A DNA stretch of 64,000 nt from a virus. Lineage: Duplodnaviria > Heunggongvirae > Uroviricota > Caudoviricetes. Positions within the stretch are counted from its first letter, which is position 1, and every line of letters starts with the position of its first letter. Both the position numbers and the translations under genes were made by a program. The stretch lies in IMG/VR virus record IMGVR_UViG_2861079508_000001; one strand, written 5' to 3'. Shown here one piece after another: positions 16,301 through 30,885 of the stretch. The notes under the pieces were generated by a model. The model saw only the letters and a list, made by a program, of their open reading frames with translations. It ran no database searches and was not told where the DNA came from.

Positions 16301-17470
16301 TCACGTCTTAATAGTTTCTGCTACGTCGGCTAATATCGCTTCTAGTCGTTCTCCCTCTTCAGGTCTGAAGTAAAGAATGTTGGGGTTAAACCCGTAAAAG
16401 ACAGTAACGTCAAGGTCTGGAAGATACTCCTTCCTGCCGACCAAATCGGATGGCTTGTTTTTGTTGTTAAACAATGAAGTTGCCCGGCTGCCACACGTCA
16501 GCACATAGGTCGGACGCACCAGATTGATCTCTTCACGCATAAAGTCGGTGAACTGGCCGATCTCGTCTTTGGTGTAGTCTTTTTCTTTGTCTTTAACCTT
16601 CTTGCAAACACCTGTGACATAGAGATCGCCCATGCGTAAATCTCCAGCCGTCAATAGCTTGGCCTTAAAGTCGTCGTATCCGTTCTCCATAAAGTAACCG
16701 GTTCGAGCATCATTGCCGTTCGCATTGTCCAGAATGATCATGATTTTCGGCTTAATACCAATGCTGGGGCGGATTAGTTCATCACCTAAGCCCATTTCAG
16801 CCGCCATCCGCGTCATGAGTACGTTAATTTCAGCCGAACGTTTGGGGTTCATCTCAAACGGACGTGAGGCTTTAACTGCGTCTATGACAAGGTTTCCCAT
16901 CAATTCAGCCTGGTCGCGTAGGCGCTCTGGATCAGTTGCTGGCAGACTGCCTGGCTCGATGGATGCAAACGCCCCTACTTTTTGCAGCGATTCGCGCACT
17001 CGACTATTACAGGCACGTTTCTCGACAGCTTCTTCGAATTGCGCCAGTGACTCGAATTTGCCGCCAACTTTTTCTCGCGCTCTCATGATGGCTTGGCAGC
17101 CATTCTCAGAACACCCCTTCACAGCAGAGAAGGGCGCATACAGCACCTGGCTGCCATCTTCAAGCGTGCGGATCTCGATTCGGTTAGATGACACGTTAAC
17201 GTCTGGTGGCAATACGCGAATGCCATAGGTCAGCGCATCTTTAACCAGCCCCTGGTGTTTATCTTCGCCAAGAATAGTGAGAGCAGCAGCGAAAAACTCT
17301 GCGGGATAATGAGTTTTCAACCACATAGATTGATAACTGATTAAGGAGTAAGCAACAGAGTGTGATTTGTTGAAGGCATACGCGCCGGATTTCTCAAACA
17401 TATTCCAGATTTCTTCGGCTCGTTCGTGCGTCAGGCCATTGCTCTCTTCGACAACACCGGTAATTTTCAT
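16301..17470 (-). CDS. dnaE: DNA polymerase III alpha (DnaE) C-terminal fragment
   Basis: starts at the conserved FNKSHSVAYSLISYQSMWLKTHYPAEFFAA region; ATG overlaps HNH stop (ATGA). Confidence 0.8.
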   Translation of the reverse strand: MKITGVVEESNGLTHERAEEIWNMFEKSGAYAFNKSHSVAYSLISYQSMWLKTHYPAEFFAAALTILGEDKHQGLVKDALTYGIRVLPPDVNVSSNRIEIRTLEDGSQVLYAPFSAVKGCSENGCQAIMRAREKVGGKFESLAQFEEAVEKRACNSRVRESLQKVGAFASIEPGSLPATDPERLRDQAELMGNLVIDAVKASRPFEMNPKRSAEINVLMTRMAAEMGLGDELIRPSIGIKPKIMIILDNANGNDARTGYFMENGYDDFKAKLLTAGDLRMGDLYVTGVCKKVKDKEKDYTKDEIGQFTDFMREEINLVRPTYVLTCGSRATSLFNNKNKPSDLVGRKEYLPDLDVTVFYGFNPNILYFRPEEGERLEAILADVAETIKT

Positions 17471-18201
17471 GCAGTCACCTCATCAATCTTCACGAACTCA
17501 TACCCATTGGAGGCCAGCCAGTTCCGTTGGCGCTCCCAGCTCCATATCTCTTCACGCATTTCACTATGCAGGCGAATGTGGGCGTCTTCTGGAAGTGCTA
17601 CAAGATTCCCAGGGGCGTTATCTATCGTATCGCGGTTAATATGGTGGACATGTTCATCGTCACGTAGCTCCCGACCGAGACGTTCTTTCGCTATCAATCG
17701 ATGAACGTATTCGTATTGCGAAACGCCATTGTTACCAACCAGCTGCATCATGTAGCCGTTGGTTTTTACGATGATGCCACCTTTGTAGTTGTTCGCTTCT
17801 TCTCCGATCTTTCCGCGTTTGGCAGCCGCCAGCTTTTCCTTCGTCTCCGCGCGGATTGTTCTGCCGGTTAGCTTTTTCGAAACGGTAGCCACTCGCTCAT
17901 CGATATCAGCACGCAGACCGGCATTCCACGAGGTTTTCCCATACATAGGGTTGCCAGTGCCAGTCCGGGCTTCGGAGAGACGCTTCATACGTTCGTCATT
18001 ATTTTTGTTTTTGCCACGATTCCAGGCTGGGGTAGCGGAGATCCGCGCGCTTCCGCGCCTGATCCCCCATTTGGCTAATAAGCGGTCAATATTTGCCTTG
18101 CTGCAACCAGCTTCGGCGGCAATGTCTTCTTTTCTCATCAGGTCAACCATGTAACGCTGACGTAACCATTCTTCTGTGATTTTGTACTTCGTACTCGGCA
18201 T
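17467..18201 (-). CDS. HNH homing endonuclease, free-standing, inserted within dnaE
   Basis: C-terminal HNH motif EHVHHINRDTIDNAPGNLVALPEDAHIRLH; N-terminal helix-turn-helix-like and NUMOD-like segments. Confidence 0.8.
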   Translation of the reverse strand: MPSTKYKITEEWLRQRYMVDLMRKEDIAAEAGCSKANIDRLLAKWGIRRGSARISATPAWNRGKNKNNDERMKRLSEARTGTGNPMYGKTSWNAGLRADIDERVATVSKKLTGRTIRAETKEKLAAAKRGKIGEEANNYKGGIIVKTNGYMMQLVGNNGVSQYEYVHRLIAKERLGRELRDDEHVHHINRDTIDNAPGNLVALPEDAHIRLHSEMREEIWSWERQRNWLASNGYEFVKIDEVTA

Positions 18202-18215
18202 TTCTAAGACTCACT

Positions 18216-18232
18216 AAACAAATTGTTTTCTT
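18216..18232. promoter_or_regulatory. motif A (AAACAAATTGTTTTCT) upstream of HNH / dnaE-C operon
   Basis: near-palindrome 15-30 bp upstream of start codon. Confidence 0.4.
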
Positions 18233-18249
18233 ATCTTATAAATTAATTC

Positions 18250-20613
18250 TCAAATATCGAAGCTCGTTATGTCGGCATTTATTGCCATTGCTTCGGCATA
18301 AGTGCGACGCTCACCATCAGCACAAAGTAGGCGTGCTGCTTTATGGATTTTTCTCGTAGAACCATCATCCAGTGACACTGTCACCCAGCCTTCCTCCGCT
18401 CGCTTAATGAAGTCGCCGCCAATGGATTTCATTTTCTCCATATCTTTTTTCCCGATCGCTTTCCTGACCGAGTCTGCTTCCGCCATTGAGAACCCCGCCA
18501 AGATTCGCGTAGCAGCCATGATCTGTTCCTGATAAATCAGAACTCCGTTTGTGTCGCGAGAGATGTCGTCCAGCATTGGGTGTAAGGAATGTGGGGCCAT
18601 GAAGCCTTTGGCCACGGACACATAATCGTCCAACATGCCGGATTGAATCGGGCCAGGTCGGAAGAGCGCAGTTGTAGCGACGACCGTTTTAAAGCTCATT
18701 GGCTCAATTCCACCACCTAAATCTTTAAGCAGCTTGCGCATTGGGCCTGATTCAAGCTGGAATACGCCCTGTGTATACCCTGCAGCAAAACCATCCAGCA
18801 CCTTGCGATCTTCAAGAGAAATGGCATCAAGATTGATATCTTCACCTGTGTTCTCTTTTATGTAGCGTTTTGCACTATCGAGCAAATCGAGAGTTGCCAG
18901 GCCAAGCACGTCCAGCTTAATTAGGCCCATAGCCTCGCAGTAACGCTTGTCAAATGCGATACAACGCGCGTCACCACGGCGTTCAACCGGTGTACGTTCT
19001 GTCAGAGGAACACCTGCTACGATCATCCCTGCCGCATGTCTACCAAAGCCACGCATAAGGCTTTGTAACTTGCAGGCTGCATTGAATGCATCAGGATATT
19101 TTGTTGCGTATTTGTCGAGACTTGCCAGTTGTTCGCGCAGCTCTTCCAATGGAAGGCTATCATCCTCGACGTTCTTCAGTTCTTTTGATACCGCCATATC
19201 TGCGGACTCCACACCATAAATACGAGCGGTGTCACGTAGTGCAGAGGCTGCGCCCAGGTAGGTGAAGTTCGGAATGCCTGCAACGTAATCTTCGCCGTAG
19301 CGTTCATTCAGATACTCGATCACCTCATGGCGACGTGCCTGGCTGAAGTCCAAGTCCGCATCCGGCAAGTCGAGACGCTCAGGGTTGATGAAACGCTCAA
19401 ACAGAAGACCGTGACGGATTGGGTCGACGTTGGTTATGCCTATGCACCACGCCACCAGAGAACCGGCAGAGGAACCACGACCAGGCCCGACAGGAATGCC
19501 AGTTTCACGGCTGTGATTCATCAGATCGCGTACCATCAGGAAGTAACCACAAAATCCCAGGCGAGTAAGCGTGTCCATTTCGTACTTAAGTCGCTCAACA
19601 TAAACCCTGTTCTCAGAAGCAGGTGGTGTGTATCCAAACTCTTTTGTGGTAAGACGTTTACGCAGCCCTGCAACAGCCAGTTTCATCAGCGTTGCAGGTT
19701 CGTCGTCTGCCATCTTGGGCAGTGCTGGTGGCAATTCATGCCAGCGCCATGTGCAGGCATCGATAATGGAGTCCTGCGTTGTTGAGGCCATTGCAGCTGT
19801 TACCGGCACATCCATGCGAACGGAGAAGGCTTTAAGCGCCTCAAGGAGATGGCGACGACCATTGATGGCGTTATCTCGCTGGTGGGGGATACGCAGACGA
19901 TGCGGCTGGTCGATTTTTATGTTGTTCGTAACCATGTGCGCAATGTCTTTAATGTCTGCATCGTCGATCGATTCGTAATAAGCGGGATAGAACGCTACTG
20001 GCTCTATTTTCAGTGCGCTGGCGACTTTCATCGCCCGGACGTTAATCTGGTCGTAGAATGGGGTAGGGTGCGGATAAACCACACTATAGAAGTTGTCTTT
20101 TCCACCCGCTGTAATCAGTGTGCTTATGATTTTTGCAAAATCGTTGCGTTGGAACACGCTACCGATGTCGGAAGTAAGCAGGATGATGTTGCCTTTGGCA
20201 TATGTAGAAACCAACTGTTCGAGCGAGAGACGCGGTACAAAGTAGAACTGTTCTCGTGTGTTGGCCGCCGTCATTAGTTCGCAGATGTCGCGATATCCTT
20301 TCTCATTTTTAATTAGAGCGGTAAACGAGTAGTTACGTCCTCGCTCTAATGATTCCATACATCTCATAGATTCTTTAGCAAGTTTAGCCCGGTGCTCGTA
20401 TGTGGGATCATCAACAATGTTTAGTTTCACACCACAAATAACCGCCATGTCGTCACCAGCGGCACGTTGTAGTGGAATAACGCTCGCAATATTCATGCTA
20501 TCTGCTGAAATTACAGCGGTGTAGCCAGCTTCTCTGGCAATCTTCACCGCGTTTTCTGCTTTTAGAGCCGACTCCCCAAGTGAGAAGTCAGTTCGAACCA
20601 TCAGTGCCTTCAT
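18250..20613 (-). CDS. dnaE: DNA polymerase III alpha (DnaE) N-terminal fragment (PHP domain plus polymerase core)
   Basis: 787 aa; GRGSSAGSLVAWCIGITNVDPIRHGLLFERFINPERLDLPDADLDF and FQLES...LFRPGP...YQEQIM match the DnaE core; last ~45 aa have no DnaE counterpart. Confidence 0.85.
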   Translation of the reverse strand: MKALMVRTDFSLGESALKAENAVKIAREAGYTAVISADSMNIASVIPLQRAAGDDMAVICGVKLNIVDDPTYEHRAKLAKESMRCMESLERGRNYSFTALIKNEKGYRDICELMTAANTREQFYFVPRLSLEQLVSTYAKGNIILLTSDIGSVFQRNDFAKIISTLITAGGKDNFYSVVYPHPTPFYDQINVRAMKVASALKIEPVAFYPAYYESIDDADIKDIAHMVTNNIKIDQPHRLRIPHQRDNAINGRRHLLEALKAFSVRMDVPVTAAMASTTQDSIIDACTWRWHELPPALPKMADDEPATLMKLAVAGLRKRLTTKEFGYTPPASENRVYVERLKYEMDTLTRLGFCGYFLMVRDLMNHSRETGIPVGPGRGSSAGSLVAWCIGITNVDPIRHGLLFERFINPERLDLPDADLDFSQARRHEVIEYLNERYGEDYVAGIPNFTYLGAASALRDTARIYGVESADMAVSKELKNVEDDSLPLEELREQLASLDKYATKYPDAFNAACKLQSLMRGFGRHAAGMIVAGVPLTERTPVERRGDARCIAFDKRYCEAMGLIKLDVLGLATLDLLDSAKRYIKENTGEDINLDAISLEDRKVLDGFAAGYTQGVFQLESGPMRKLLKDLGGGIEPMSFKTVVATTALFRPGPIQSGMLDDYVSVAKGFMAPHSLHPMLDDISRDTNGVLIYQEQIMAATRILAGFSMAEADSVRKAIGKKDMEKMKSIGGDFIKRAEEGWVTVSLDDGSTRKIHKAARLLCADGERRTYAEAMAINADITSFDI

Positions 20614-22124: not shown

Positions 22125-24233
22125 TCACTTTAAAATGATACGAGATAGTTCAGTAACTACAGATGAACCAAGACTATCAACGCTCGTTACCAGGGCATGA
22201 TTTGAGTAAAATCTCTCCGGTGCGTCAGTCATGATGCCAATTGCCATCAAATCAATATCAGTCTGCGTTTCAATTTGCTTCGCAACTGAACGCAAATGAG
22301 CGTCAAAACCTCTCCCAACAGCCCACGGCGCGCCATCACTCAGAACAAGCATGATCTTCCTGTCCTCCATGCGACCGGAAAATAACGATGCAAGGCTGGC
22401 TATGCTTTCACCATCCACGTTATTAAGAAGTGGGAATGTGTAGCCTACGCACCCCATACGTGAGCGAACTTCGCGAGAATTTACCTTTTCATTCCAATTT
22501 TTGATGATAGGTAGCATTAAAGATTCAAAGCGAGAGAACTCATACTTGACAGCCTTAAGTTCTCCTGCCGCCATATGACTACCAAATGTAGTGAAGCCGG
22601 TGATAATGTTGGGAACATTTATTCGATCAAGGGCATCGGCGATGGTATATGCACTTGCAAGAGCCAGTTTAATCGTTATACCACTCATTGAACCTGATAA
22701 ATCAATCACTTGTTGAACACAGGCGTTAACGGCTTTAGATTCTTCTTTTTTACGAAACACGCGAGCATCATTCATTGCTAATCTGTAGATACTAGAACCA
22801 TGAATGCGCCCCCGACGCTGGCCCGGTATAAACTGAACTCTGTTTCTGCTTGCTATTGCTCGCTCCAGGTCTTTTGCCAGCGTCGACGAAACACCTGACG
22901 AAAGATGCTTTTCAATATATTTGTCGAAGAGCTGGTTGCCTTCAGGAACGATGCGATAGCGGCTGATTGGATATCCTCCCAAATCAATATCGGAGAATGT
23001 TTTAATAAGCCGTTTGATATGGGCTTCTGCCTGATCAATCGAGCCGATGAAGTCGTATGAGCGATTGTATGGCCTGTATTCGCTTTTCGAGCTTTCTGTT
23101 AACTCGCTTTTAATCGTTTCGGATAGAGCATCTTCTGTCATGCCTCCGACTTCATCTTCTATGCTATCCAGCTCCTCTAAAGCCTCTTCCAGACTCATTT
23201 TTGACGGAGTTGGGATATCTGAAGAGCCATCTTCTGTCGTTTTTCTTTTTTCGTGGTCAGCGGTTAATGATTCTGACGCCGCGTTATCAGAAGCATCAGA
23301 ATCTGATACCTCTTTATCATTTTCTGTATCATCGAATATTGTTTCTGATGATTCAGAATTATCTGAATCATCACTGTCGCTATTATCATGTTTGTACTTA
23401 CTATGTGATTCTGATTTGATAGATTTGTGATTATCTAACACTGAGGGTGTCTCATGATCTTCGTTGTCTTCATTGTTTTCTCCAGAGGCATCCGTCTGGT
23501 CAGCGTCTGAAGGATCGGAAGTTTTTCCCGGAGCTGACTCCTTACCTTTGCTTTCACTTTCAGTGTCTTTGAGGATCTTAGCTATGGTCGCAGCCACCTT
23601 TACACAATCCTCGGTGCAAGACATGTTACGCACGGCCACATCGATACCATGTTCTTTTAATAATGAAATTGGTTTCTCAATGACAGGCCAATGTTCATCC
23701 ATGAAATCTACGAACGGTGCTTGGCCATCCCAGGCTCTTACAACCGGACAGAGAAAGAAGTTTAGAAAAAGCGCGCGCTGATCTTTGCCACAATAAGCAA
23801 TAGCCTCTGAAGCCTTTGGTTTAAAGACTTTTTCGATTATAAGGCGCTGAGTTGCCATCAGATTACGTCTTGTTCCGTTAAAGACCTGACCCATTTTTCG
23901 CTCGATGAACACGTCTTCTAAGGCATTCCATAGCGACCAGGAAGGAACGCGTCCTTTTTCTCTCATTTTGTTGGACACACGAATATCGGTAAACAAAATG
24001 TGAGCAACCTCATGATCGAGAAATCCGCGCACAGCATTCATCAATGCCGGTGTTGCGTTATCCGGGATTGATGGGATGTTTACGAAAATTGGCTCTCCAT
24101 CATCGTTATAGCGTACATAAGCGTCGTCCCCTCGTTCTGCAACAGGGATGTTTTTACCTGAAAGGAGAGCGACTACTCGTTTTACACTGTCACGGAAGTC
24201 CTGAACCTCTTTGATGGAACGTTTTTTAGACAT
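22125..24233 (-). CDS. CobT-like von Willebrand factor A domain protein
   Basis: 702 aa; VWA/MIDAS-like IDLSGSMSG; long acidic Ser/Asp-rich linker. Confidence 0.65.
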   Translation of the reverse strand: MSKKRSIKEVQDFRDSVKRVVALLSGKNIPVAERGDDAYVRYNDDGEPIFVNIPSIPDNATPALMNAVRGFLDHEVAHILFTDIRVSNKMREKGRVPSWSLWNALEDVFIERKMGQVFNGTRRNLMATQRLIIEKVFKPKASEAIAYCGKDQRALFLNFFLCPVVRAWDGQAPFVDFMDEHWPVIEKPISLLKEHGIDVAVRNMSCTEDCVKVAATIAKILKDTESESKGKESAPGKTSDPSDADQTDASGENNEDNEDHETPSVLDNHKSIKSESHSKYKHDNSDSDDSDNSESSETIFDDTENDKEVSDSDASDNAASESLTADHEKRKTTEDGSSDIPTPSKMSLEEALEELDSIEDEVGGMTEDALSETIKSELTESSKSEYRPYNRSYDFIGSIDQAEAHIKRLIKTFSDIDLGGYPISRYRIVPEGNQLFDKYIEKHLSSGVSSTLAKDLERAIASRNRVQFIPGQRRGRIHGSSIYRLAMNDARVFRKKEESKAVNACVQQVIDLSGSMSGITIKLALASAYTIADALDRINVPNIITGFTTFGSHMAAGELKAVKYEFSRFESLMLPIIKNWNEKVNSREVRSRMGCVGYTFPLLNNVDGESIASLASLFSGRMEDRKIMLVLSDGAPWAVGRGFDAHLRSVAKQIETQTDIDLMAIGIMTDAPERFYSNHALVTSVDSLGSSVVTELSRIILK

Positions 24234-24252
24234 GGCTAATCCTTTGTTATGA

Positions 24253-24268
24253 AAACAAATTATTTACT
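24253..24268. promoter_or_regulatory. motif A variant (AAACAAATTATTTACT) upstream of cobT-like gene
   Basis: 20-35 bp upstream of ATG 24233. Confidence 0.35.
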
Positions 24269-24331
24269 AGTGTGTTTAATGTAGCACTGCGCGAACAGGG
24301 AACTAAGCCATTCGCGCAGGGAGAAGAGGGG

Positions 24332-24544
24332 TTAACAGATTCTGACGGCTAAAGACCCGGAGCCGATATTGAGAAGCGTGAAGCGTTTGTTGTTAAGTTC
24401 GAATATAAAGCCAGTTGTGTCATTCACACCAACCTGAATCTGCTCATTCGGTAGATCGGTGAGGATGTCAGCTACACACTCATCAGCTAATTTCTGTACG
24501 TGTCCGATCTCAAGAGCGATTAGGCTGGAAATAGTGGTGTTCAT
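24332..24544 (-). CDS. hypothetical protein (70 aa)
   Basis: ORF only. Confidence 0.3.
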   Translation of the reverse strand: MNTTISSLIALEIGHVQKLADECVADILTDLPNEQIQVGVNDTTGFIFELNNKRFTLLNIGSGSLAVRIC

Positions 24545-24795
24545 TCAATCAATCCATTCTAACTTATACTATGGTAAGGAATACTACTAAAATTTATATC
24601 AATACTGAATACATTCATATCATATGCAAGTTAATTTTCTTACCTGTTTTGGGCTAATTTTTCTCCGTGCAATGGCCTTTAACCGGTCTTTTAAGTGCCT
24701 ATCGAAAAAAATGATAATAGCTTTACAACCCTAACCTTTGATGTAATATCGGTAAGCACTTACCAGAGAGAATTGAACGCGCAAAGGTTGTAACA

Positions 24796-25182
24796 ATGTC
24801 TGACAACAAGATTGAATTTATAGAAAGTCGCTATGCTGCTTTTATCGCAGGGCTGATTGAATCCTCACCTATGAGTCAGGCCCAAATAGCCAGACTTATT
24901 GGTTATAAAAATGCCAACAACCTTTCTTTAATTAAAAGTGGCAAAATTCCTTTGCCTATCGATAAGGTTCGTCCGTTGGCGCTGGCGCTGGGTATTGAGC
25001 CAAGTCGTCTTATGATGATGGTGCTGGAAGAACGCCAACCTGAACTCGCAGCATTTTTATACAAAGAAGGCACCGCTCCTCTTAACGAGGACGAAAAACA
25101 GGTTCTTGCTGCATATAACGAGCGATTCGGTAAAGAGAAAGGCGCATCACAAAAGGTTGTTGAGGCCATAAAGTCTCTATGA
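24796..25182 (+). CDS. helix-turn-helix (XRE-like) transcriptional regulator
   Basis: 128 aa; SQAQIARLIGYKNANNLSLIKSGK helix-turn-helix; AT-rich 250-bp upstream region. Confidence 0.55.
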   Translation: MSDNKIEFIESRYAAFIAGLIESSPMSQAQIARLIGYKNANNLSLIKSGKIPLPIDKVRPLALALGIEPSRLMMMVLEERQPELAAFLYKEGTAPLNEDEKQVLAAYNERFGKEKGASQKVVEAIKSL

Positions 25183-26280
25183 AAAATTTACACGAATAAG
25201 CTCTGTTGATAGACGATCTCCCTTGAATTTGTGGTCAATTTCGTCTAAATCCGGTTGCTCTACGATTGATGCGATGTACGTCGAGAAACTTTCTAAGGCG
25301 TCTCGCATCTCGTCCATATAATCGTGCCGGTCGTAGACTCGATCTATCCCCTCAAGACTGTGGTTCATGATTTTGCGTGATACCTCCTGGCTTATGCCTA
25401 ATGCTGGGAAGTAACTACGCGCAGTGCGGCGCAAGTCTCGGGGTGTAAATGGCTCAAGCTCCATCAGTTCTGGTCGTTCCAGAATACGACGTAATGCCTG
25501 GGCTATTGCCACTTTAGACATAGGAAGGTCTTTCCCGATTTTTTTATTCGAAGGCACGAGCCACTGGCTGCCTTTACCGTATTCGAACAACTCTTCAATG
25601 CATGTGCGCATTAATGAGCTTAAAGGCAGAGAATGCTCACGGGCAGATTTGTTCCTCTTGCCTTGATTCCAAACCCCACGCTTAAGATTGAACTCACTTT
25701 TTTTAGCCCGCAGTACTTCGTCAGGTCGTCTTGCGGATACAAGACATAGCCTGGCCGCCCATTTTGTACCAGCACACACATTGAAGTAGTCCCATATATT
25801 CCAGAACACCCATACCTCTGCGTCGGTTAGCTTCCGCTCGCGAGGTGTGGGCTTTGCGCCACCGGCAACTTTGTTAAGTGACATATCGTTTAACGGTGAC
25901 ACGTCGATCATCCCCTGGAAGGCGCACCAGCTGAGGAACTGCTTCATCAGAGAGAAAACGCGGCGACCCATAACAATTTTGCCATCCAGTATTAGTGGGT
26001 TGACCAGTTGGTTCACCATGAACCTATTAATATCACTTACTTTTACATCGGCAATGTGCGGCAAAACATGTATCAAAATACAATGAACAGCGATCTCTGG
26101 CCGACGTCTTGTTATCAGCAGAGATAAGCGAGTGAATAACATGAATGCGTCCGAGAATCTCATGTCATTGCTGACCTGGGAGATCATAACGGCCTGCATT
26201 TGAGATGCTCTTTCGAGATACTCAATCGCCTCTTTTGAGGTGTTCTCCGCAGCGCGTGCTCTGTCAAAGCTATTTTTCAT
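25177..26280 (-). CDS. tyrosine recombinase / integrase (lambda Int-like catalytic domain)
   Basis: 367 aa; C-terminal TPRDLRRTARS and NHSLEGIDRVYDRHDY (box II, His, Tyr nucleophile). Confidence 0.7.
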   Translation of the reverse strand: MKNSFDRARAAENTSKEAIEYLERASQMQAVMISQVSNDMRFSDAFMLFTRLSLLITRRRPEIAVHCILIHVLPHIADVKVSDINRFMVNQLVNPLILDGKIVMGRRVFSLMKQFLSWCAFQGMIDVSPLNDMSLNKVAGGAKPTPRERKLTDAEVWVFWNIWDYFNVCAGTKWAARLCLVSARRPDEVLRAKKSEFNLKRGVWNQGKRNKSAREHSLPLSSLMRTCIEELFEYGKGSQWLVPSNKKIGKDLPMSKVAIAQALRRILERPELMELEPFTPRDLRRTARSYFPALGISQEVSRKIMNHSLEGIDRVYDRHDYMDEMRDALESFSTYIASIVEQPDLDEIDHKFKGDRLSTELIRVNFS

Positions 26281-26530
26281 ATGACAATCACCGAGTTACG
26301 CCGATGCACTGTATAAGTAAACAGTATATTAGGCATAGATTCTTATAGGATCAAGAGTAAAAGTAACTCATTTTCAGTAATGATTCCATACATAGTAGGT
26401 ATGGAATCATTGTAGGCCTTTTTTATAAAATCTGTGATTCTTCTCAGGATAAATTATCTAAACTAAAAATTGTGTTTTGTGTTGGCATCTGCTTGAATAG
26501 ACGCATGTTTATTCAGATATGGAATAATCA

Positions 26531-27067
26531 GTGAACAACCAAATTCATTGGGACTACCCATTCTCAGAAGAATTCGGCAGTGGGATGGTACACAGACAAT
26601 TCACTGTGGGAAGCACTATTTATGCCGTTGGGTTTGAACAAATATTGACGATGGATGATTTCACACGTAAGGGAGTTGATATCCTAAATGTACATCCAAC
26701 ATTCCGGTTTCCTCTGAGTGGTGTATGGGGAGTGATTTTTGACGAAATTGACCCTGTAGAAATGGATTTCAAAGGATTTCGGCATATCCAACATCAAGGC
26801 TTGGCAGGTGGTCAAGTGCTTTTGAATGTTGCAAGTATAATCTTTGACCATTATACTGTTTGTAACGCAGGAGCTTATGTCTTCTCCGCCGCAGACGACC
26901 ATCAGCATTTACGCAGAACTGACTTGGTAGACATTTACTGTAAGATACTAGGTCTAAATGGAAAACGTAAAAGTAGATTGTTCGCCAATGGTTTTCCTGG
27001 ATGGGAGGCATACTGTGATGTACCAACAGGAGGAAGAGGCTATGTCGTCACGACTGAAAGTTATTAA
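26531..27067 (+). CDS. hypothetical protein (178 aa, GTG start)
   Basis: plus-strand ORF in a minus-strand backbone; overlaps next small gene by 26 bp. Confidence 0.35.
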   Translation: MNNQIHWDYPFSEEFGSGMVHRQFTVGSTIYAVGFEQILTMDDFTRKGVDILNVHPTFRFPLSGVWGVIFDEIDPVEMDFKGFRHIQHQGLAGGQVLLNVASIIFDHYTVCNAGAYVFSAADDHQHLRRTDLVDIYCKILGLNGKRKSRLFANGFPGWEAYCDVPTGGRGYVVTTESY

Positions 27068-27269
27068 TTATTACCCCACCTCTGCAGAACGTTTGAGCCT
27101 TGAAATGGGCGAAAGACTACAGAAAGCTGCTGGTCAGGATTTAAAGAACAAGTTGGGTTCAGGGGAAATTAAACTGATTAACGGTAAATATGTAGGTGAA
27201 AGCCTGAAAGTTAATAGCACCTCTATGCTAAAAGCGCGGTTGCGTAAAGCGTATATCCCCGCTAAATGA
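27042..27269 (+). CDS. small hypothetical protein (75 aa, MSSRLKVINYYPT...)
   Basis: strong ribosome-binding site AGGAGGAAGAGG before ATG 27042; ends at an intrinsic terminator; track shows a longer ORF from 26958. Confidence 0.45.
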   Translation: MSSRLKVINYYPTSAERLSLEMGERLQKAAGQDLKNKLGSGEIKLINGKYVGESLKVNSTSMLKARLRKAYIPAK

Positions 27270-27298
27270 AAAGGCCTATATGGGCCTTTTCATTTTTA
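27270..27298. terminator. bidirectional intrinsic terminator (AAAGGCC-tatat-GGGCCTTTT plus T-run)
   Basis: read directly between convergent genes ending at 27269 and 27296. Confidence 0.6.
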
Positions 27299-27541
27299 TA
27301 GTGTACTCACCAGCGCCGCAAATTCCGTATACCCCCCAATATGCTCTCCATGTATGAATATCTGAGGTATGGTATCCACTGGTTTACCAACCTGGTTGCT
27401 CAACGTTTCTTTGTTGATCCCCGCAGATGTAATATCTATATACTCATAATCACCGTAGCCATGTCCCTTTAGTTGCTTCGCCAACTCGACCGCACGTTTG
27501 CAGTATGAGCAGTTATCTCGTCCGTAGATAGTGATCGTCAT
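27296..27541 (-). CDS. glutaredoxin-like protein (NrdC/GrxA-type)
   Basis: 81 aa; CSYC active site near N-terminus; thioredoxin-fold size. Confidence 0.7.
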   Translation of the reverse strand: MTITIYGRDNCSYCKRAVELAKQLKGHGYGDYEYIDITSAGINKETLSNQVGKPVDTIPQIFIHGEHIGGYTEFAALVSTL

Positions 27542-27608
27542 AACTTAACAAATACCTTTATAAATATTGATTCGAACATATCAGACTATACTACAAACAG
27601 ATTTTTTT

Positions 27609-27629
27609 GATAAGTATGTAGTAACTTAT
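27609..27629. promoter_or_regulatory. motif B upstream of the AT-rich orphan gene (plus orientation)
   Basis: GATAAGTATGTAGTAACTTAT; AAACAATTG half-site of motif A at 27643-27651. Confidence 0.4.
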
Positions 27630-27714
27630 TGATTGACTAGTAAACAATTGAAGTGATTACGACAATAGATTACAGTAAGGATTGCCTTGAAATGTACATT
27701 TTATAGAGGTTTTA

Positions 27715-28623
27715 ATGATTGGTAAGTTGTCTGATTCTTTGATTGAAAATAAATACAACGAATTTAGAGAAGAAATATCTTTACTTTTTGACTATTTAAA
27801 TCAGATAAATGATACAACAAAGAAAAATATAAAACGTCTTCTTAAAGAAGTGGAGTATGCACAAAATCCAGATACTATTATTAATATTAATGAAACTATT
27901 AAGATTAAGTGTGGCACAACGTTAGCTCGCCATTTATGTTCAAACCCATATACAGGTTCAACATTAGAGATAGGTAACAGCGCCATTGATTTAGAAGAAA
28001 AGATAAGATTGTGTAATACTTTGAAAAATAAACAATATCAGTGGGTTATTACTGAAGCCTATGAGTTACTGGAAGACTATATTGAGGCAATATATGTCTA
28101 TACTGTATGTGTTCGAAATGATTTATGGTCCTCAAGTGATTTTGGTAAGGTTGAAGATGATGAAATTGGGAAAAGGGAAGTTTATTACAGATTATTAAAA
28201 GCAAAAAGTAACCCATCGAAAAAAATAACTAAAATTTTCAGAAATAAAATACCTGGCTTCAAAGAGATAGAAACAAACAACAAGATTGGCAAAAACTATC
28301 GCTTTAACATCAAGCTAATTGAACTACTAAGACATACAATAGTACACAATAGTGGACGATTCAATGATACAGAAAAATTTATAAATAAGGTTTTAGATGA
28401 ATCTGAAATAAACGGTAAGAAAAGAGTTATTGGAGAAAGAGCTGTTAGAAGTTACATTACTAAAGTGCAAGAAGATGATATTGTGATGCTCTTAGAAAGA
28501 CCATCTGAAATTTTAGGTTCTTTTGGTGGGTATTTTAACAGAGCAAAATTTTTACTAAGTGATATTTTAGAATACTCACTAATCATTAAAGAAGAACTAA
28601 AATCATATCTAGGCAATCATTAA
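27715..28623 (+). CDS. AT-rich orphan protein with HEPN-like Rx4H motif; candidate Abi-like defence/anti-defence
   Basis: 302 aa; coding region visibly AT-rich versus flanks; motif LLRHTIVHNSGRF (R-x4-H); own upstream motif and own terminator; function is inference. Confidence 0.5.
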   Translation: MIGKLSDSLIENKYNEFREEISLLFDYLNQINDTTKKNIKRLLKEVEYAQNPDTIININETIKIKCGTTLARHLCSNPYTGSTLEIGNSAIDLEEKIRLCNTLKNKQYQWVITEAYELLEDYIEAIYVYTVCVRNDLWSSSDFGKVEDDEIGKREVYYRLLKAKSNPSKKITKIFRNKIPGFKEIETNNKIGKNYRFNIKLIELLRHTIVHNSGRFNDTEKFINKVLDESEINGKKRVIGERAVRSYITKVQEDDIVMLLERPSEILGSFGGYFNRAKFLLSDILEYSLIIKEELKSYLGNH

Positions 28624-28630
28624 CAAAAAA

Positions 28631-28658
28631 GGGGCCGAAGCCCCTTTGGATTTTGCGC
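28631..28658 (+). terminator. intrinsic terminator GGGGCCGAAGCCCC plus TTTGGATTTT
   Basis: read directly, 8 bp after the 27715..28623 stop. Confidence 0.65.
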
Positions 28659-28720
28659 TTAAAAAAGTGTTGCTAGGATGTTAGCAAGCTATGGTTAAGA
28701 ACGTCTGCCGTAATTGTCTA

Positions 28721-28799
28721 TCACAGCGTTGAGCGGTCTGGTTTATGTTAGCGGAGTCTTAATCGAGTTGATTAAAAGGCCAAACCGCTCAACGCTGTG
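28721..28799. repeat. long hairpin H0 (arms CACAGCGTTGAGCGGTCTGG / CCAAACCGCTCAACGCTGTG, ~38-nt loop)
   Basis: inverted repeat read directly, just 3' of tRNA-Ser on the minus strand. Confidence 0.5.
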
Positions 28800-28801
28800 T
28801 C

Positions 28802-28888
28802 TGGCGGAGAGTAATGGAATCGAACCATCATCGCTTGCGCAATGGGACGGTTTTCAAGACCGCTTGAGCACCATGCTCCCTACTCTCC
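28802..28888 (-). tRNA. tRNA-Ser (anticodon UGA), class II long variable arm
   Basis: folded by hand from the reverse complement: acceptor GGAGAGT/ACTCTCC, anticodon loop CTTGAAA, T-loop TTCGATT, 3' CCA. Confidence 0.8.
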
Positions 28889-28987
28889 AGCTATTGTGAT
28901 GGTCGGTGCTGAACTCCGACACAGGGTTGTAGCAAGCCCCGCAAAGCGCGCACTACTGTAGTTGCGGCACATCAGCCTGTGCATTCA

Positions 28988-29070
28988 TCACAACGGTAAG
29001 ATCACTACCTTTCGACCAGTCATTGTGCACATGAACGACGATTAACCGTAATGATCTTATCGTTGTGTTG
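28988..29070. repeat. long hairpin H1 (arms CACAACGGTAAGATCA / TGATCTTATCGTTGTG)
   Basis: inverted repeat read directly between tRNA-Ser and tRNA-Thr. Confidence 0.5.
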
Positions 29071-29115
29071 TGAAGCCAGATGCTTATCTTCTGGTTGCTT
29101 CAAAGAGCTGCACTT

Positions 29116-29208
29116 CCTCACAACGGTAAGAGCACTGGTCTGACTCTATCGATTTACGGCCTTGTGGGTCAGTATCGCCGATTCGCCCAATGCTCTTACC
29201 TGTTGTGT
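29116..29208. repeat. long hairpin H2 (arms CACAACGGTAAGAGCA / TGCTCTTACCTGTTGTG), paralogue of H1
   Basis: inverted repeat read directly; ends at tRNA-Thr. Confidence 0.5.
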
Positions 29209-29284
29209 TGGTGCCGGTTAACGGACTTGAACCGCTGGCCATTCGCTTACAAAGCGACTGCTCTACCAACTGAGCTAAACCGGC
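29209..29284 (-). tRNA. tRNA-Thr (anticodon UGU)
   Basis: hand fold: acceptor GCCGGTT/AACCGGC, D-arm GCTCAGTTGGTAGAGC, anticodon loop TTTGTAA, T-loop TTCAAGT, CCA. Confidence 0.8.
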
Positions 29285-29288
29285 AATT

Positions 29289-29375
29289 TGGTGGGGAGTG
29301 ATGGAGTCGAACCACCCGAGTCGCCATGACAGTAGATTTACAGTCTACACCGCTACCTCTACGGACTAACTCCCC
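29289..29375 (-). tRNA. tRNA-Tyr (anticodon GUA), class II
   Basis: hand fold: anticodon arm CAGACTGTAAATCTG-like (GACTGTAAATC), long variable arm, T-loop TTCGACT, CCA. Confidence 0.85.
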
Positions 29376-29380
29376 TAAAT

Positions 29381-29455
29381 TGGCGATGGTGGGTGGATTC
29401 GAACCACCGACCAGTTGGTTAACAGCCAACTGCTCTACCGCTGAGCTACACCATC
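29381..29455 (-). tRNA. tRNA-Asn (anticodon GUU)
   Basis: hand fold: perfect 7-bp acceptor GATGGTG/CACCATC, anticodon loop CTGTTAA, T-loop TTCGAAT, CCA. Confidence 0.85.
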
Positions 29456-29717
29456 AATTCAGCACTGCCAGTATTTATTACTCAACAGTGCCAATCGCGA
29501 CGGTTTAGTTTCTGCCAGGAAACGCACCGCTACTTGCACTTTTCGTTAGTGCCAGACGCTTTCGACTTCGCTCAATAGTAGAAGGCAAAATCTTTAAGTA
29601 GATGATGTTTCTGAGGACAGCACCTACTTTGTAATTTATACAATGTGATGTATGGAATCATTTGTTGTGAAAACAGGCACCAATGGCAACAGTGGTTAAA
29701 CCTACACAACAATCCCG

Positions 29718-29846
29718 TCTTCACAACGTTGAGGCCACTACTCCGATTGAATGTTTGCCCAACATGTTACATATCAACGCTCGCCGGTATCTCTGTGAAT
29801 AGAACCTTAGAATTGATAAAAATGTAATGGCCTCAACGTTGTGTGC
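29718..29846. repeat. long hairpin H3 (arms CACAACGTTGAGGCCAC / ATGGCCTCAACGTTGTG, ~93-nt loop)
   Basis: inverted repeat read directly in the non-coding region. Confidence 0.45.
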
Positions 29847-30524: not shown

Positions 30525-30669
30525 TTTCTCACCTTTGTTTCATGAACTACCCGATACACACGCTTTCCGATGCACAGTGTTTTGGTTTTAAGTTCCTGCT
30601 TAATTAAGTCACGACAGATGCCGAAGCCGATAAGGAAGCCACCCATAAAAGCTAATGAGATGTATGGAA

Positions 30670-30885
30670 TCATTTTAACACTCCTGATTCTACTAATTGC
30701 TGTAGCAATACTTTCCCTTTATCAGTTAACTGGTAGTTGGCCGAACACTTCGTTTCAGAAACGTTTGCAACCAACCCTAAACGCTCTAACTTAGCTCGCG
30801 TTTTAGGCTTCCAGTACTCAGGGAACTCCGGCCACTTACTGATTTCATGAAGCGTTTCCTTCTCCCGTTTACTTAATACGATCAT
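30670..30885 (-). CDS. hypothetical protein (71 aa)
   Basis: ORF only. Confidence 0.35.
   Translation of the reverse strand: MIVLSKREKETLHEISKWPEFPEYWKPKTRAKLERLGLVANVSETKCSANYQLTDKGKVLLQQLVESGVLK

Follow-up and report, generated by a model that had tools for sequence, protein, structure and literature searches.

A putative LexA-controlled, lox-like recombinase and site adjoining a candidate prophage repressor gene in SSU5-type phage-plasmids

Cre/loxP of phage P1 and ResD/rfsF of plasmid F combine a simple recombinase with a nearby minimal site and serve for multimer resolution and cyclisation. The P1 protein C1 has many dispersed operators. Here we describe a locus of SSU5-type phage-plasmids that bears comparison with these systems. 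It occupies positions 24,545 to 26,280 of a DNA stretch of 64,000 nucleotides from IMG/VR virus record IMGVR_UViG_2861079508_000001 (Caudoviricetes), called the window hereafter, and codes for a tyrosine recombinase (gene int) and a helix-turn-helix (HTH) protein. We consider it fairly likely that int and an inverted repeat upstream of it form a Cre/loxP-like unit under SOS control, which adjoins the gene of a self-regulated HTH protein that is a probable prophage repressor.

The window belongs to the SSU5 supergroup of phage-plasmids (PMC7969092; group table in PMC11652158). The region under study matches E. coli plasmid pSJC33-2 with 100% identity and phage-plasmid Cyrano (pLF82) with 97-98%, and it has counterparts in 528 plasmids of about 110 kb in PLSDB, from Escherichia, Klebsiella, Salmonella and other genera. 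The int/HTH module is found in 251 of 5,426 complete E. coli genomes, at 254 places. Gene order is the same in every IMG/VR locus of sufficient length: grx, a variable gap, the repeat, int, the convergent HTH gene, a gene for a protein of 70 amino acids (aa) and cobT. SSU5-type phage-plasmids are common in Enterobacteriaceae and can carry resistance genes, but their maintenance and induction are essentially uncharacterised; no paper on the function of their int or HTH genes was found in the searchable literature. The positions and the convergent layout of the two genes in the initial annotation were confirmed. The recombination part of the locus has the following features, identified in part from open reading frames (ORFs).

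25177..26280, minus strand: int, tyrosine recombinase of 367 aa (ORF; Pfam PF00589; family alignment; AlphaFold 2 model; Foldseek)
26307..26326, no strand assigned: predicted LexA (SOS) box, TACTGTTTACTTATACAGTG on the int strand, directly after the -10 hexamer of the int promoter
26326..26354, minus strand: predicted int promoter, read from the sequence, with -35 TTGATC (26349-26354), a 17-bp spacer and -10 TAATAT (26326-26331)
26379..26411, no strand assigned: candidate core recombination site, (A)ATGATTCCATAC-N7-GTATGGAATCAT(T), with perfect inverted arms and a 7-bp spacer
26412..26430, no strand assigned: T/A-tract beside the distal arm, TGTAGGCC-TTTTTTAT on the plus strand, loosely conserved and flagged by a scan for terminator-like signals
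26412..27295, no strand assigned: variable cargo slot from the repeat to grx, with ORFs 26531-27067 and 27042-27269 on the plus strand in the window

In the window some 100 bp separate the candidate site from the int ATG downstream of it. It is a 12-7-12 inverted repeat (26380-26410, 31 bp), or 13-7-13 if the flanking A/T is counted (26379-26411), whose spacer at 26392-26398 reads ATAGTAG on the plus strand and CTACTAT on the int strand. When IMG/VR was scanned for the exact pattern, 101 loci were retrieved, and in all 101 the repeat is found 44-100 bp upstream of an int gene whose product is 59-100% identical to that of the window. Across more than 100 examples the spacer length is always 7 bp, and its sequence varies by lineage (CTACTAT, CTATTAA, TTGTAAG, TTGGTAG, TTATATA and others). 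The repeat has therefore the inverted arms of 11-13 bp, the spacer of 6-8 bp and the position near the gene that define the minimal site of simple systems. Full-text literature searches for the arm sequences retrieved only unrelated primers, and no description of the site, of the LexA box or of the plasmid-wide recombinase family was found in the searchable literature.

More distant Int homologues (44-48% identity) were fetched with their flanks from Providencia and Xenorhabdus phage-plasmids and from Erwinia and Pantoea replicons (four). In their repeats two changes are shared by both arms, ATGACTCCAGAC-N7-GTCTGGAGTCAT, and a spacer of 7 bp is retained. The Providencia and Xenorhabdus phage-plasmids retain the synteny of int, an HTH-like gene, the 70-aa gene and cobT, while in Erwinia and Pantoea int stands alone among metabolic genes; the Erwinia contig of about 106 kb is most likely a plasmid and the Pantoea replicon of 507 kb is probably a megaplasmid. 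The presence of the repeat beside int in the latter two, where phage genes are missing, shows that the repeat travels with the recombinase and not with the phage backbone. Symmetric covariation of the arms combined with a fixed 7-bp spacer is expected of a cognate core site and would exceed the constraint on a hairpin loop.

The spacer is exactly reverse-complemented in two independent lineages, PhiR41_1 (ATAGTAG, as compared to CTACTAT) and L058 (TTAATAG, as compared to CTATTAA), with arms and int side unchanged relative to close relatives. These flips could result from a small inversion at the perfect palindrome, either hairpin-mediated or mediated by the recombinase.

The organization resembles that of Cre/loxP, and also of ResD/rfsF, in several respects (comparison based in part on PMC7969092). 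The replicon concerned is a plasmid prophage, its recombinase is a two-domain protein devoid of an arm-binding domain, and the site has identical inverted arms of 12-13 bp and a short asymmetric spacer, just upstream of the recombinase gene. Like loxP in P1, it acts as a hot spot between related genomes. The two systems differ in that Int has no detectable sequence relationship to Cre, which appears in Foldseek searches with E-values of 0.08-0.5, well below lambda Int, and in that the SSU5-type spacer has 7 bp while that of loxP has 8. Unlike Cre, Int has a P4-like integrase descent, an arginine at the position of the first catalytic histidine (His-I), a second histidine retained where Cre has a tryptophan, and a LexA box in the promoter of its gene.

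The int product passes the threshold of the Pfam family Phage_integrase (E-value 4e-10, 40.1 bits for a cut-off of 27.1). Its AlphaFold model, built on 30 homologues, has a predicted local distance difference test score (pLDDT) of 85.7, and the top structural match retrieved by Foldseek is lambda Int residues 75-356 (1z19/1z1b; template modelling (TM) score 0.72-0.75), followed at lower rank by Tn1549 Int, XerA, IntI and XerH, all, lambda Int included, with probability 1.00. Fold and PF00589 match thus place Int in the tyrosine recombinase superfamily. A sequence search of the PDB with the Int and HTH proteins gave nothing useful. The label "lambda Int-like" of the initial annotation is correct for the fold and misleading for the lifestyle. 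In the 30-sequence family alignment the catalytic set is R185, K211, R281-D-L-R284, H307 and Y316; R185, D282-L283-R284-R285 and Y316 are invariant and K211, H216 and H307 nearly so. The R...HxxR...H...Y pattern given earlier holds with the exception of its first histidine: the His-I position is R281 throughout the family, which has hence RxxR, and is occupied by His only in remote P4-like relatives. Substitution of His-I by Arg is found in a minority of active tyrosine recombinases.

When int is compared to its Klebsiella orthologue the proportion of nonsynonymous differences (pN) is 0.12, the lowest among the genes compared (HTH gene 0.29, 70-aa gene 0.39, cobT 0.25). Synonymous sites are saturated (proportion of synonymous differences, pS, 0.76), so that a dN/dS ratio is not computable and pN and pS are given in its place. 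The low pN in face of saturated synonymous sites shows that int is strongly constrained and no relic. With its catalytic residues invariant or nearly so, the protein does not look like the catalytically dead enzyme that the initial annotation had envisaged as a possible refutation; it is a genuine tyrosine recombinase and probably an active one.

The closest sequence relatives of Int outside its family are P4/CP4-57-type integrases (24-31% identity). Like these lambda-like, heterobivalent enzymes, Int has the Phage_int_M and Phage_integrase domains and the fold of lambda Int 75-356. In the model it consists of a core-binding and a catalytic domain preceded by residues 1-57, which are all-helical; no Pfam match to an arm-binding domain of the PF13356 or PF09003 kind was found in the protein, and precomputed Pfam annotations place PF13356 only in relatives of 24-34% identity. 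About 57 helical residues thus stand where P4/CP4-57-type integrases have PF13356.

This kinship, the lambda-Int-like fold and the proximity of tRNA genes, 2.4 kb away, would suit a conventional lambda/P4-type integrase that inserts the phage-plasmid into a chromosomal attB, for instance a tRNA gene, and thereby lets it alternate between a plasmid and an integrated form. The distribution of the module argues strongly against it. All 254 occurrences in the 5,426 complete E. coli genomes are on plasmids and none is chromosomal, which largely refutes this role for E. coli. The DNA upstream of int has no attB-like match in E. coli chromosomes at E-values up to 10 beyond two chance-level hits (E=7). 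Beside int no Xis-like ORF or family match was found, and no arm-type repeats were present within 250 bp, the sole candidate being a degenerate half-site at 26515-26528. Int differs from P4/CP4-57-type integrases also in that neither attP arms nor a chromosomal attB were found and chromosomes never carry the module. Ordinary plasmids host homologues together with the same site, and SSU5-type elements have been reported to be exclusively extrachromosomal (PMC9600943, Pfeifer et al.). We therefore consider chromosomal integration by Int very improbable, and the tRNA target proposed in the initial annotation, together with the search for att sites suggested there, found no counterpart in the chromosomes. 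Chromosomal integration at a tRNA attB was rejected on these grounds, module and int-upstream DNA both lacking any chromosomal occurrence in the 5,426 genomes. Cointegrates mediated by Int were also looked for: the two oversized module plasmids (218 and 240 kb) have a normal arrangement at the repeat and lend this idea no support.

The exclusive plasmid location favours multimer resolution or cyclisation over integration; of the two roles that had been proposed for the recombinase, multimer resolution fits the data. In the mechanism that we propose, Int dimers would bind the two identical arms of the 12-7-12 repeat and cleave on either side of the 7-bp spacer via Y316, and recombination would follow between two copies of the site. 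Multimers of the plasmid-prophage would be converted to monomer circles, and possibly an incoming genome, if terminally redundant, would be cyclised as well. The site would, as a by-product, become a recombination hot spot at which related elements exchange flanks. Binding and cleavage of the repeat by Int, and the resolution function, we infer from these comparisons.

The site is a boundary in the mosaic of these genomes. In pairwise comparisons of 34 E. coli-type loci, identity over the 250 bp nearest int never drops below 96%, while the distal flanks form five clusters without relationship to each other. When window segment 26281-26470 was aligned by blastn to 253 E. coli plasmids, most of the alignments listed ended at query position 131, that is window position 26411, where the repeat has its outer edge. 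The slot beyond is empty in most E. coli-type loci, the grx terminator being followed by 83-86 bp and then by the repeat. The window carries 885 bp of cargo with ORFs of 178 aa (26531-27067) and 75 aa (27042-27269). The 178-aa ORF had no match in Pfam, PHROGs, NCBIfam or PADLOC, and the 75-aa ORF none in PADLOC, the sole scan applied to it. Elsewhere there are five unrelated fillings, which include a YafO-family toxin pair, CYRAN_43 and longer inserts. CYRAN_43 (184 aa; L005 40268-40822) is transcribed about 700-fold above the prophage background. The grx allele changes along with the cargo (78-85% identity while int is 99-100% identical), and no second full or hybrid site was found on the grx side of the cargo, where only the degenerate half-site 26515-26528 was detected. 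Covariation of grx with the cargo and the lack of a second site fit crossovers at the site by which co-resident elements would swap their entire flanks, and not cassette capture.

Capture of circular cargo beside its own gene by an SOS-induced recombinase, as in integrons, has nevertheless to be weighed. The succession of LexA box in the recombinase promoter, site directly upstream and variable, expressed cargo beyond mirrors intI/attI, and the cargo includes toxin-antitoxin genes and the strongly expressed CYRAN_43. The candidate site is however a symmetric duplex core site, there are no cassette boundaries on the grx side, cargo appears to be exchanged with larger flanks, in line with the change of grx allele, and the slot is empty in most E. 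coli elements. The recombinase itself is not of the IntI type, IntI ranking below lambda Int in the Foldseek search. Cassette capture is for these reasons quite improbable in our opinion.

Expression of int is predicted to be under LexA control. The -35 and -10 hexamers of its promoter are invariant between the E. coli and Klebsiella elements despite the saturation of synonymous sites. The CTGT-N8-ACAG core of the LexA box (26309-26324) starts one base past the -10 hexamer, 29-44 bp ahead of the int start codon. No other CTGT-N8-ACAG exists in the 64 kb of the window, and the box agrees with the LexA consensus at 16 of 20 positions. One match is close to the chance expectation for the window, so that the case for LexA is made by position and conservation: among 89 loci whose Int is at least 77% identical, CTGT and ACAG are perfect in 85 and have one mismatch in three more, with 12 variants of the N8 segment. 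The box is absent from the class with 60% identical Int and from the Erwinia and Pantoea homologues; SOS control appears therefore as an addition to the core unit of recombinase and site. Neither the 12-7-12 repeat at 26380-26410 nor this box had been named in the initial annotation.

Published strand-specific RNA-seq data for strain LF82, which carries the 98%-identical Cyrano, give for int log2 values (fragments per kilobase per million) of 5.6 in LB, 8.9 after 1 h in macrophages and 10.3 after 6 h. In LB the int transcript exceeds background about 5-fold, a level suited to a maintenance function, and it is 26-fold up in macrophages, which are described as SOS-inducing, in parallel with CYRAN_98. 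LexA bound just after the -10 hexamer would keep int low in normal growth and allow a higher level in SOS, a timing that would coincide with RecA-dependent multimerisation and with prophage induction. LexA binding at this box is predicted from its sequence and position.

A second strong and conserved LexA box, tataCTGTATGTGTATACAGta, is found outside the window, at 89277-89292 in Cyrano, and at 88011 in SSU5 and 23732 in Klebsiella pJN2-26. It lies just upstream of a small gene, CYRAN_98, annotated as "LexA-like peptidase S24", which is expressed well above background and is up in macrophages. CYRAN_98 could be UmuD-like or take part in the induction pathway.

Several facts weigh against the proposed lox-like unit under SOS control. 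The change of His to Arg at residue 281 is unusual, SOS control is atypical for a resolvase, and the rise of int in the RNA-seq data is not specific of LexA since many other plasmid genes share the trend. The repeat folds as a hairpin (-17.4 kcal/mol) followed by a T-tract, and could work together with it as a weak terminator for plus-strand transcripts. Finally, and as the chief objection to taking the repeat at face value, the 15-mer formed by one arm and three spacer bases, ATGATTCCATACATC, exists also in three conserved single copies:

20349-20363, plus strand: single ATGATTCCATACATC, antisense inside the gene of DNA polymerase III (PolIII) alpha (coding CMESL)
29647-29661, minus strand: single ATGATTCCATACATC, intergenic, upstream of the tRNA cluster
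30659-30673, minus strand: single ATGATTCCATACATC, at the start codon (MIPYI) of a 50-aa ORF

These copies are syntenic, amid diverged flanks, in Cyrano, in Klebsiella pJN2-26 and in SSU5. Their persistence in SSU5, which has no int, means that another factor may read ATGATTCCATACATC. They may be half-sites or pseudo-sites of Int inherited from an ancestor that bore int, or targets of such a factor. A search for a single copy with the changed arm in 13 kb of the Providencia and Xenorhabdus loci found none, the PolIII segment not being conserved there. The possibility that the single 15-mers are full asymmetric sites was discarded, their flanks, inspected by eye, showing no partner arm apart from a weak candidate at the 29650 copy (8-bp spacer, 6/11 positions matching).

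The same observations are the basis of another explanation, in which the repeat is a regulatory operator, or a hairpin or terminator, belonging to another conserved factor that also reads the single 15-mers, Int acting elsewhere or having a mainly regulatory role. The syntenic singles of SSU5, the stable hairpin with its terminator-like T-tract and the position of the repeat between two divergent transcription units speak for it. The T/A-tract, however, accompanies the repeat in all cargo contexts of phage-plasmid loci and is absent at the Erwinia and Pantoea plasmid sites, onto which the repeat has followed int. The 7-bp spacer is kept in over 100 examples although the loop sequence varies freely, the arms have the 12-13 bp of standard core sites, and near-identity between elements stops exactly at the repeat. 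On balance a purely regulatory repeat seems unlikely to us.

The second half of the locus comprises the HTH gene and its control region.

24332..24544, minus strand: 70-aa gene (phrog_2627), divergent from the HTH gene; it always accompanies the module
24545..24795, no strand assigned: AT-rich divergent control region of 251 bp between the HTH gene (plus strand) and the 70-aa gene
24722..24749, plus strand: predicted HTH promoter (promoter scan), with -35 TTTACA, a 16-bp spacer and -10 TAATAT
24751..24764, no strand assigned: candidate operator GGTAAG-CA-CTTACC, at about +1 of the HTH promoter; the sole exact GGTAAGNNCTTACC in the window
24796..25182, plus strand: Xre-type HTH protein of 128 aa, candidate prophage repressor (ORF; phrog_8; AlphaFold 2 model)
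25177..25182, no strand assigned: tail-to-tail overlap of the stops of int and HTH ORFs, TCATAG, 6 bp
2400, 2726, 15711, 30204, 38987 and 44119, no strand assigned: dispersed 20-mer palindromes in the window (sequence scan)
3527, 22448, 57446, 67883, 77436, 84620 and others, no strand assigned: dispersed palindromes in Cyrano (sequence scan)

The HTH protein matches the PHROG transcriptional-regulator family phrog_8 (6.6e-12) and, below threshold, Pfam HTH_19 (18.9 bits for a cut-off of 30.2). Its model (pLDDT 73.5) has a five-helix Xre domain (helices 12-80) and three C-terminal helices. No match to an S24 peptidase domain was found in its 128 aa, which end in the three helices, and the protein does not belong to the cleavable CI/LexA-type class. 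Foldseek retrieved C.AhdI, C.BclI, HigA and the 434 repressor (TM 0.6-0.8), and also Stl. The family is confined to contigs of about 100-116 kb of these elements. It diverges faster than Int, with 57% identity to the Klebsiella protein where Int has 83%, and about 50% where Int has 60% in the distant class, while the recognition-helix region YKNxNNLSLIKSGKIPLP is nearly invariant.

The leader of the HTH gene, described in the initial annotation as AT-rich and of 250 bp, measures 251 bp and has indeed a guanine plus cytosine fraction of 0.331 as compared to 0.462 for the window, among the lowest 2% of all 251-bp windows. Only its HTH-proximal 50 bp are conserved with Klebsiella. The HTH promoter is conserved in all identity classes of Int and HTH proteins, and the palindrome overlapping its start is invariant in 74 loci, whose HTH proteins are 57-100% identical, except for the two centre bases and the first base. 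In distant phage-plasmids no clear palindrome was recognized, and a shared TATTTACTTATA close to the promoter was all that was seen.

The inner 12 bp of this palindrome match a motif dispersed in the genome, ATArGTAAGT|ACTTACyTAT, with which it shares the core GTAAGNNCTTAC. The core, with at most one mismatch, occurs 12 times in Cyrano, 17 in SSU5 and 21 in the Klebsiella element for about two expected, a 5-10-fold enrichment. The dispersed palindrome lies between the hexamers of sigma70-like promoters, TTGAAA-[palindrome]-TATnAT (N17), ahead of many genes. It is probably one of the two motifs, A or B, that the initial annotation proposed as targets of the HTH protein. The set of palindromes looks like a genome-wide operator network reminiscent of the operators of P1 C1. 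Like C1, the HTH protein would have an operator palindrome scattered over many promoters of a phage-plasmid of about 110 kb, while its sequence is unrelated to that of C1. It resembles also Xre/CI-type repressors without cleavage domain in being a small HTH protein transcribed in lysogens, divergent from a string of replication genes and with an operator at its own promoter.

In lysogens, transcription of the Cyrano orthologue, CYRAN_45, exceeds background about 10-fold, and the authors of the Cyrano study annotated it as a putative repressor (PMC9928086). In the proposed scheme the HTH protein would repress its own promoter at GGTAAG-N2-CTTACC and would act likewise at the same palindrome in about 12-30 sigma70-like promoters across the genome. 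Its binding to the palindromes we infer from the match between operator and dispersed motif. It is probably the prophage repressor. Cyrano was induced 39-fold by ciprofloxacin (PMC9928086); with an HTH protein that has no S24 domain, this SOS induction would need another route.

The case of SSU5 bears on this assignment. In SSU5 tRNA-Asn stands directly before cobT, and grx, int, the HTH gene and the 70-aa gene are absent. None of 585 PLSDB plasmids that match the SSU5 junction has it contiguous, and all 585 keep the module; in plasmids 99% identical to SSU5 about 6.3 kb with the module lie between the junction halves. SSU5 segment 42596-42761, when compared to E. hormaechei pD-CRECL423, shows a deletion of about 6.3 kb, which removed the 70-aa gene, the HTH gene, int, the repeat, cargo, grx, gp49, phoH and two hypothetical genes. 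SSU5 was obtained in the form of free virions and is applied in biocontrol as a lytic phage. That the module is missing only in this virion-isolated element fits a role in lysogeny or maintenance, in which the shares of the HTH gene, int and the other deleted genes cannot be told apart.

Some facts weigh against the HTH protein as prophage repressor. Its Foldseek matches are generic Xre proteins with weak E-values, and the elements encode other regulators, e.g. CYRAN_114 and CYRAN_37. SSU5, although devoid of the HTH gene, has retained about 17-30 palindrome copies, so that the motif may have another reader. The HTH protein might accordingly be only a local regulator, autoregulated and acting on the divergent 70-aa/cobT operon or on cargo, with another protein as master repressor and reader of the palindromes. 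This is a tentative alternative, which we hold to be possible but somewhat doubtful. To the equal number of palindromes in SSU5 it adds the presence of several other regulators and of the S24-peptidase gene with its own LexA box, the fact that the best fold matches are restriction-modification controller proteins and HigA antitoxins, joined by a weak PADLOC match to a "control protein", and the finding that in macrophages HTH mRNA stays high while some genes with palindrome promoters rise. It does not account readily for the match of the inner 12 bp of the HTH operator to the dispersed motif, for the retention of the gene by every plasmid-state relative and its loss only in the lytic isolate, or for its transcription in lysogens. 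Moreover, the HTH protein outpaces its neighbours in divergence except in the recognition helix, as immunity repressors do. The lysogeny or maintenance repressor suggested in the initial annotation is consequently plausible, in view of the conserved promoter palindrome, the transcription in lysogens and an absence limited to SSU5, but stays short of proof, SSU5 having kept the palindromes without the gene.

The two genes of the module are also coupled physically. Their stops overlap by 6 or 9 bp in 76 of 76 loci with Int at least 80% identical. The overlap leaves no room for a terminator between the genes, so the int and HTH transcripts must overlap; within the HTH gene, at 24940-24956, the int transcript has a weak hairpin of terminator-like form. 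The overlap itself might constitute an SOS switch: after inactivation of LexA the int promoter would send an antisense transcript through the HTH gene and, by collision and pairing, lower the repressor and derepress the palindrome promoters. If true, induction by ciprofloxacin and mitomycin would be explained without cleavage of the repressor or an antirepressor, and the constancy of the overlap (76 of 76 loci) and of the LexA box (85 of 89) provides its background. In the LF82 RNA-seq data, however, HTH mRNA is high while int is up 26-fold, and most lytic genes are near background, which lends the idea no positive support; such a switch is a speculation to which we give little chance.

The 70-aa gene heads a leftward string of genes, cobT-cobS-PolIII. 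Its orthologue in Cyrano, CYRAN_46, rises about 90-fold from LB to 6 h in macrophages in the RNA-seq data. The cargo ORFs and the 70-aa gene had no match in PADLOC, and an Rfam scan of 24200-29800 detected only tRNAs.

Other parts of the window differ among relatives. The tRNA block at 27715-29455 varies among close relatives and consists in the window of Ser, Thr, Tyr and Asn tRNA genes and a 302-aa ORF (phrog_35492), in Cyrano of Ser, Thr and Asn, and in SSU5 and Klebsiella of Asn only. The PolIII alpha gene, which in Cyrano, SSU5 and Klebsiella codes in one piece for about 1,170 aa, is apparently interrupted in the window (16301-20613, minus strand), where there are ORFs of 787 aa (N-terminal part, 18250-20613), 244 aa (17467-18201) and 389 aa (16301-17470). 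The 244-aa ORF is probably the gene annotated as HNH endonuclease in pSJC33-2. The CobS-like AAA gene of the Xenorhabdus relative contains a LAGLIDADG insertion. Beside repA (1-1095), segment 2892-6610 (minus strand) codes for an IS3-family transposase fragment and then for a protein of 1,005 aa resembling the R subunit of type I restriction enzymes; the insertion point of this cargo is directly upstream of a small gene (start at about 2713) that is preceded by a palindrome copy (2729-2742).

A LexA-tuned, lox-like resolution or cyclisation system whose site doubles as a point of cargo exchange is the best-supported reading of int and its repeat, and the Xre-type HTH protein is, from its sequence and context, the leading candidate for the prophage repressor. 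If this is true, the name "integrase", given universally in annotations of SSU5-type elements, is misapplied to what is a lox-like resolution system having a 31-bp site, and annotation pipelines and prophage predictors that equate "integrase" with integration would be wrong for this recombinase family. The recombinase and its site would form a compact pair with natural specificity variants (arms ATGATTCCATAC and ATGACTCCAGAC) that could be useful as an orthogonal tool. The repeat would mark where SSU5-type elements swap cargo, and the HTH gene with its palindrome would provide a concrete candidate for the lysogeny switch of these phage-plasmids.

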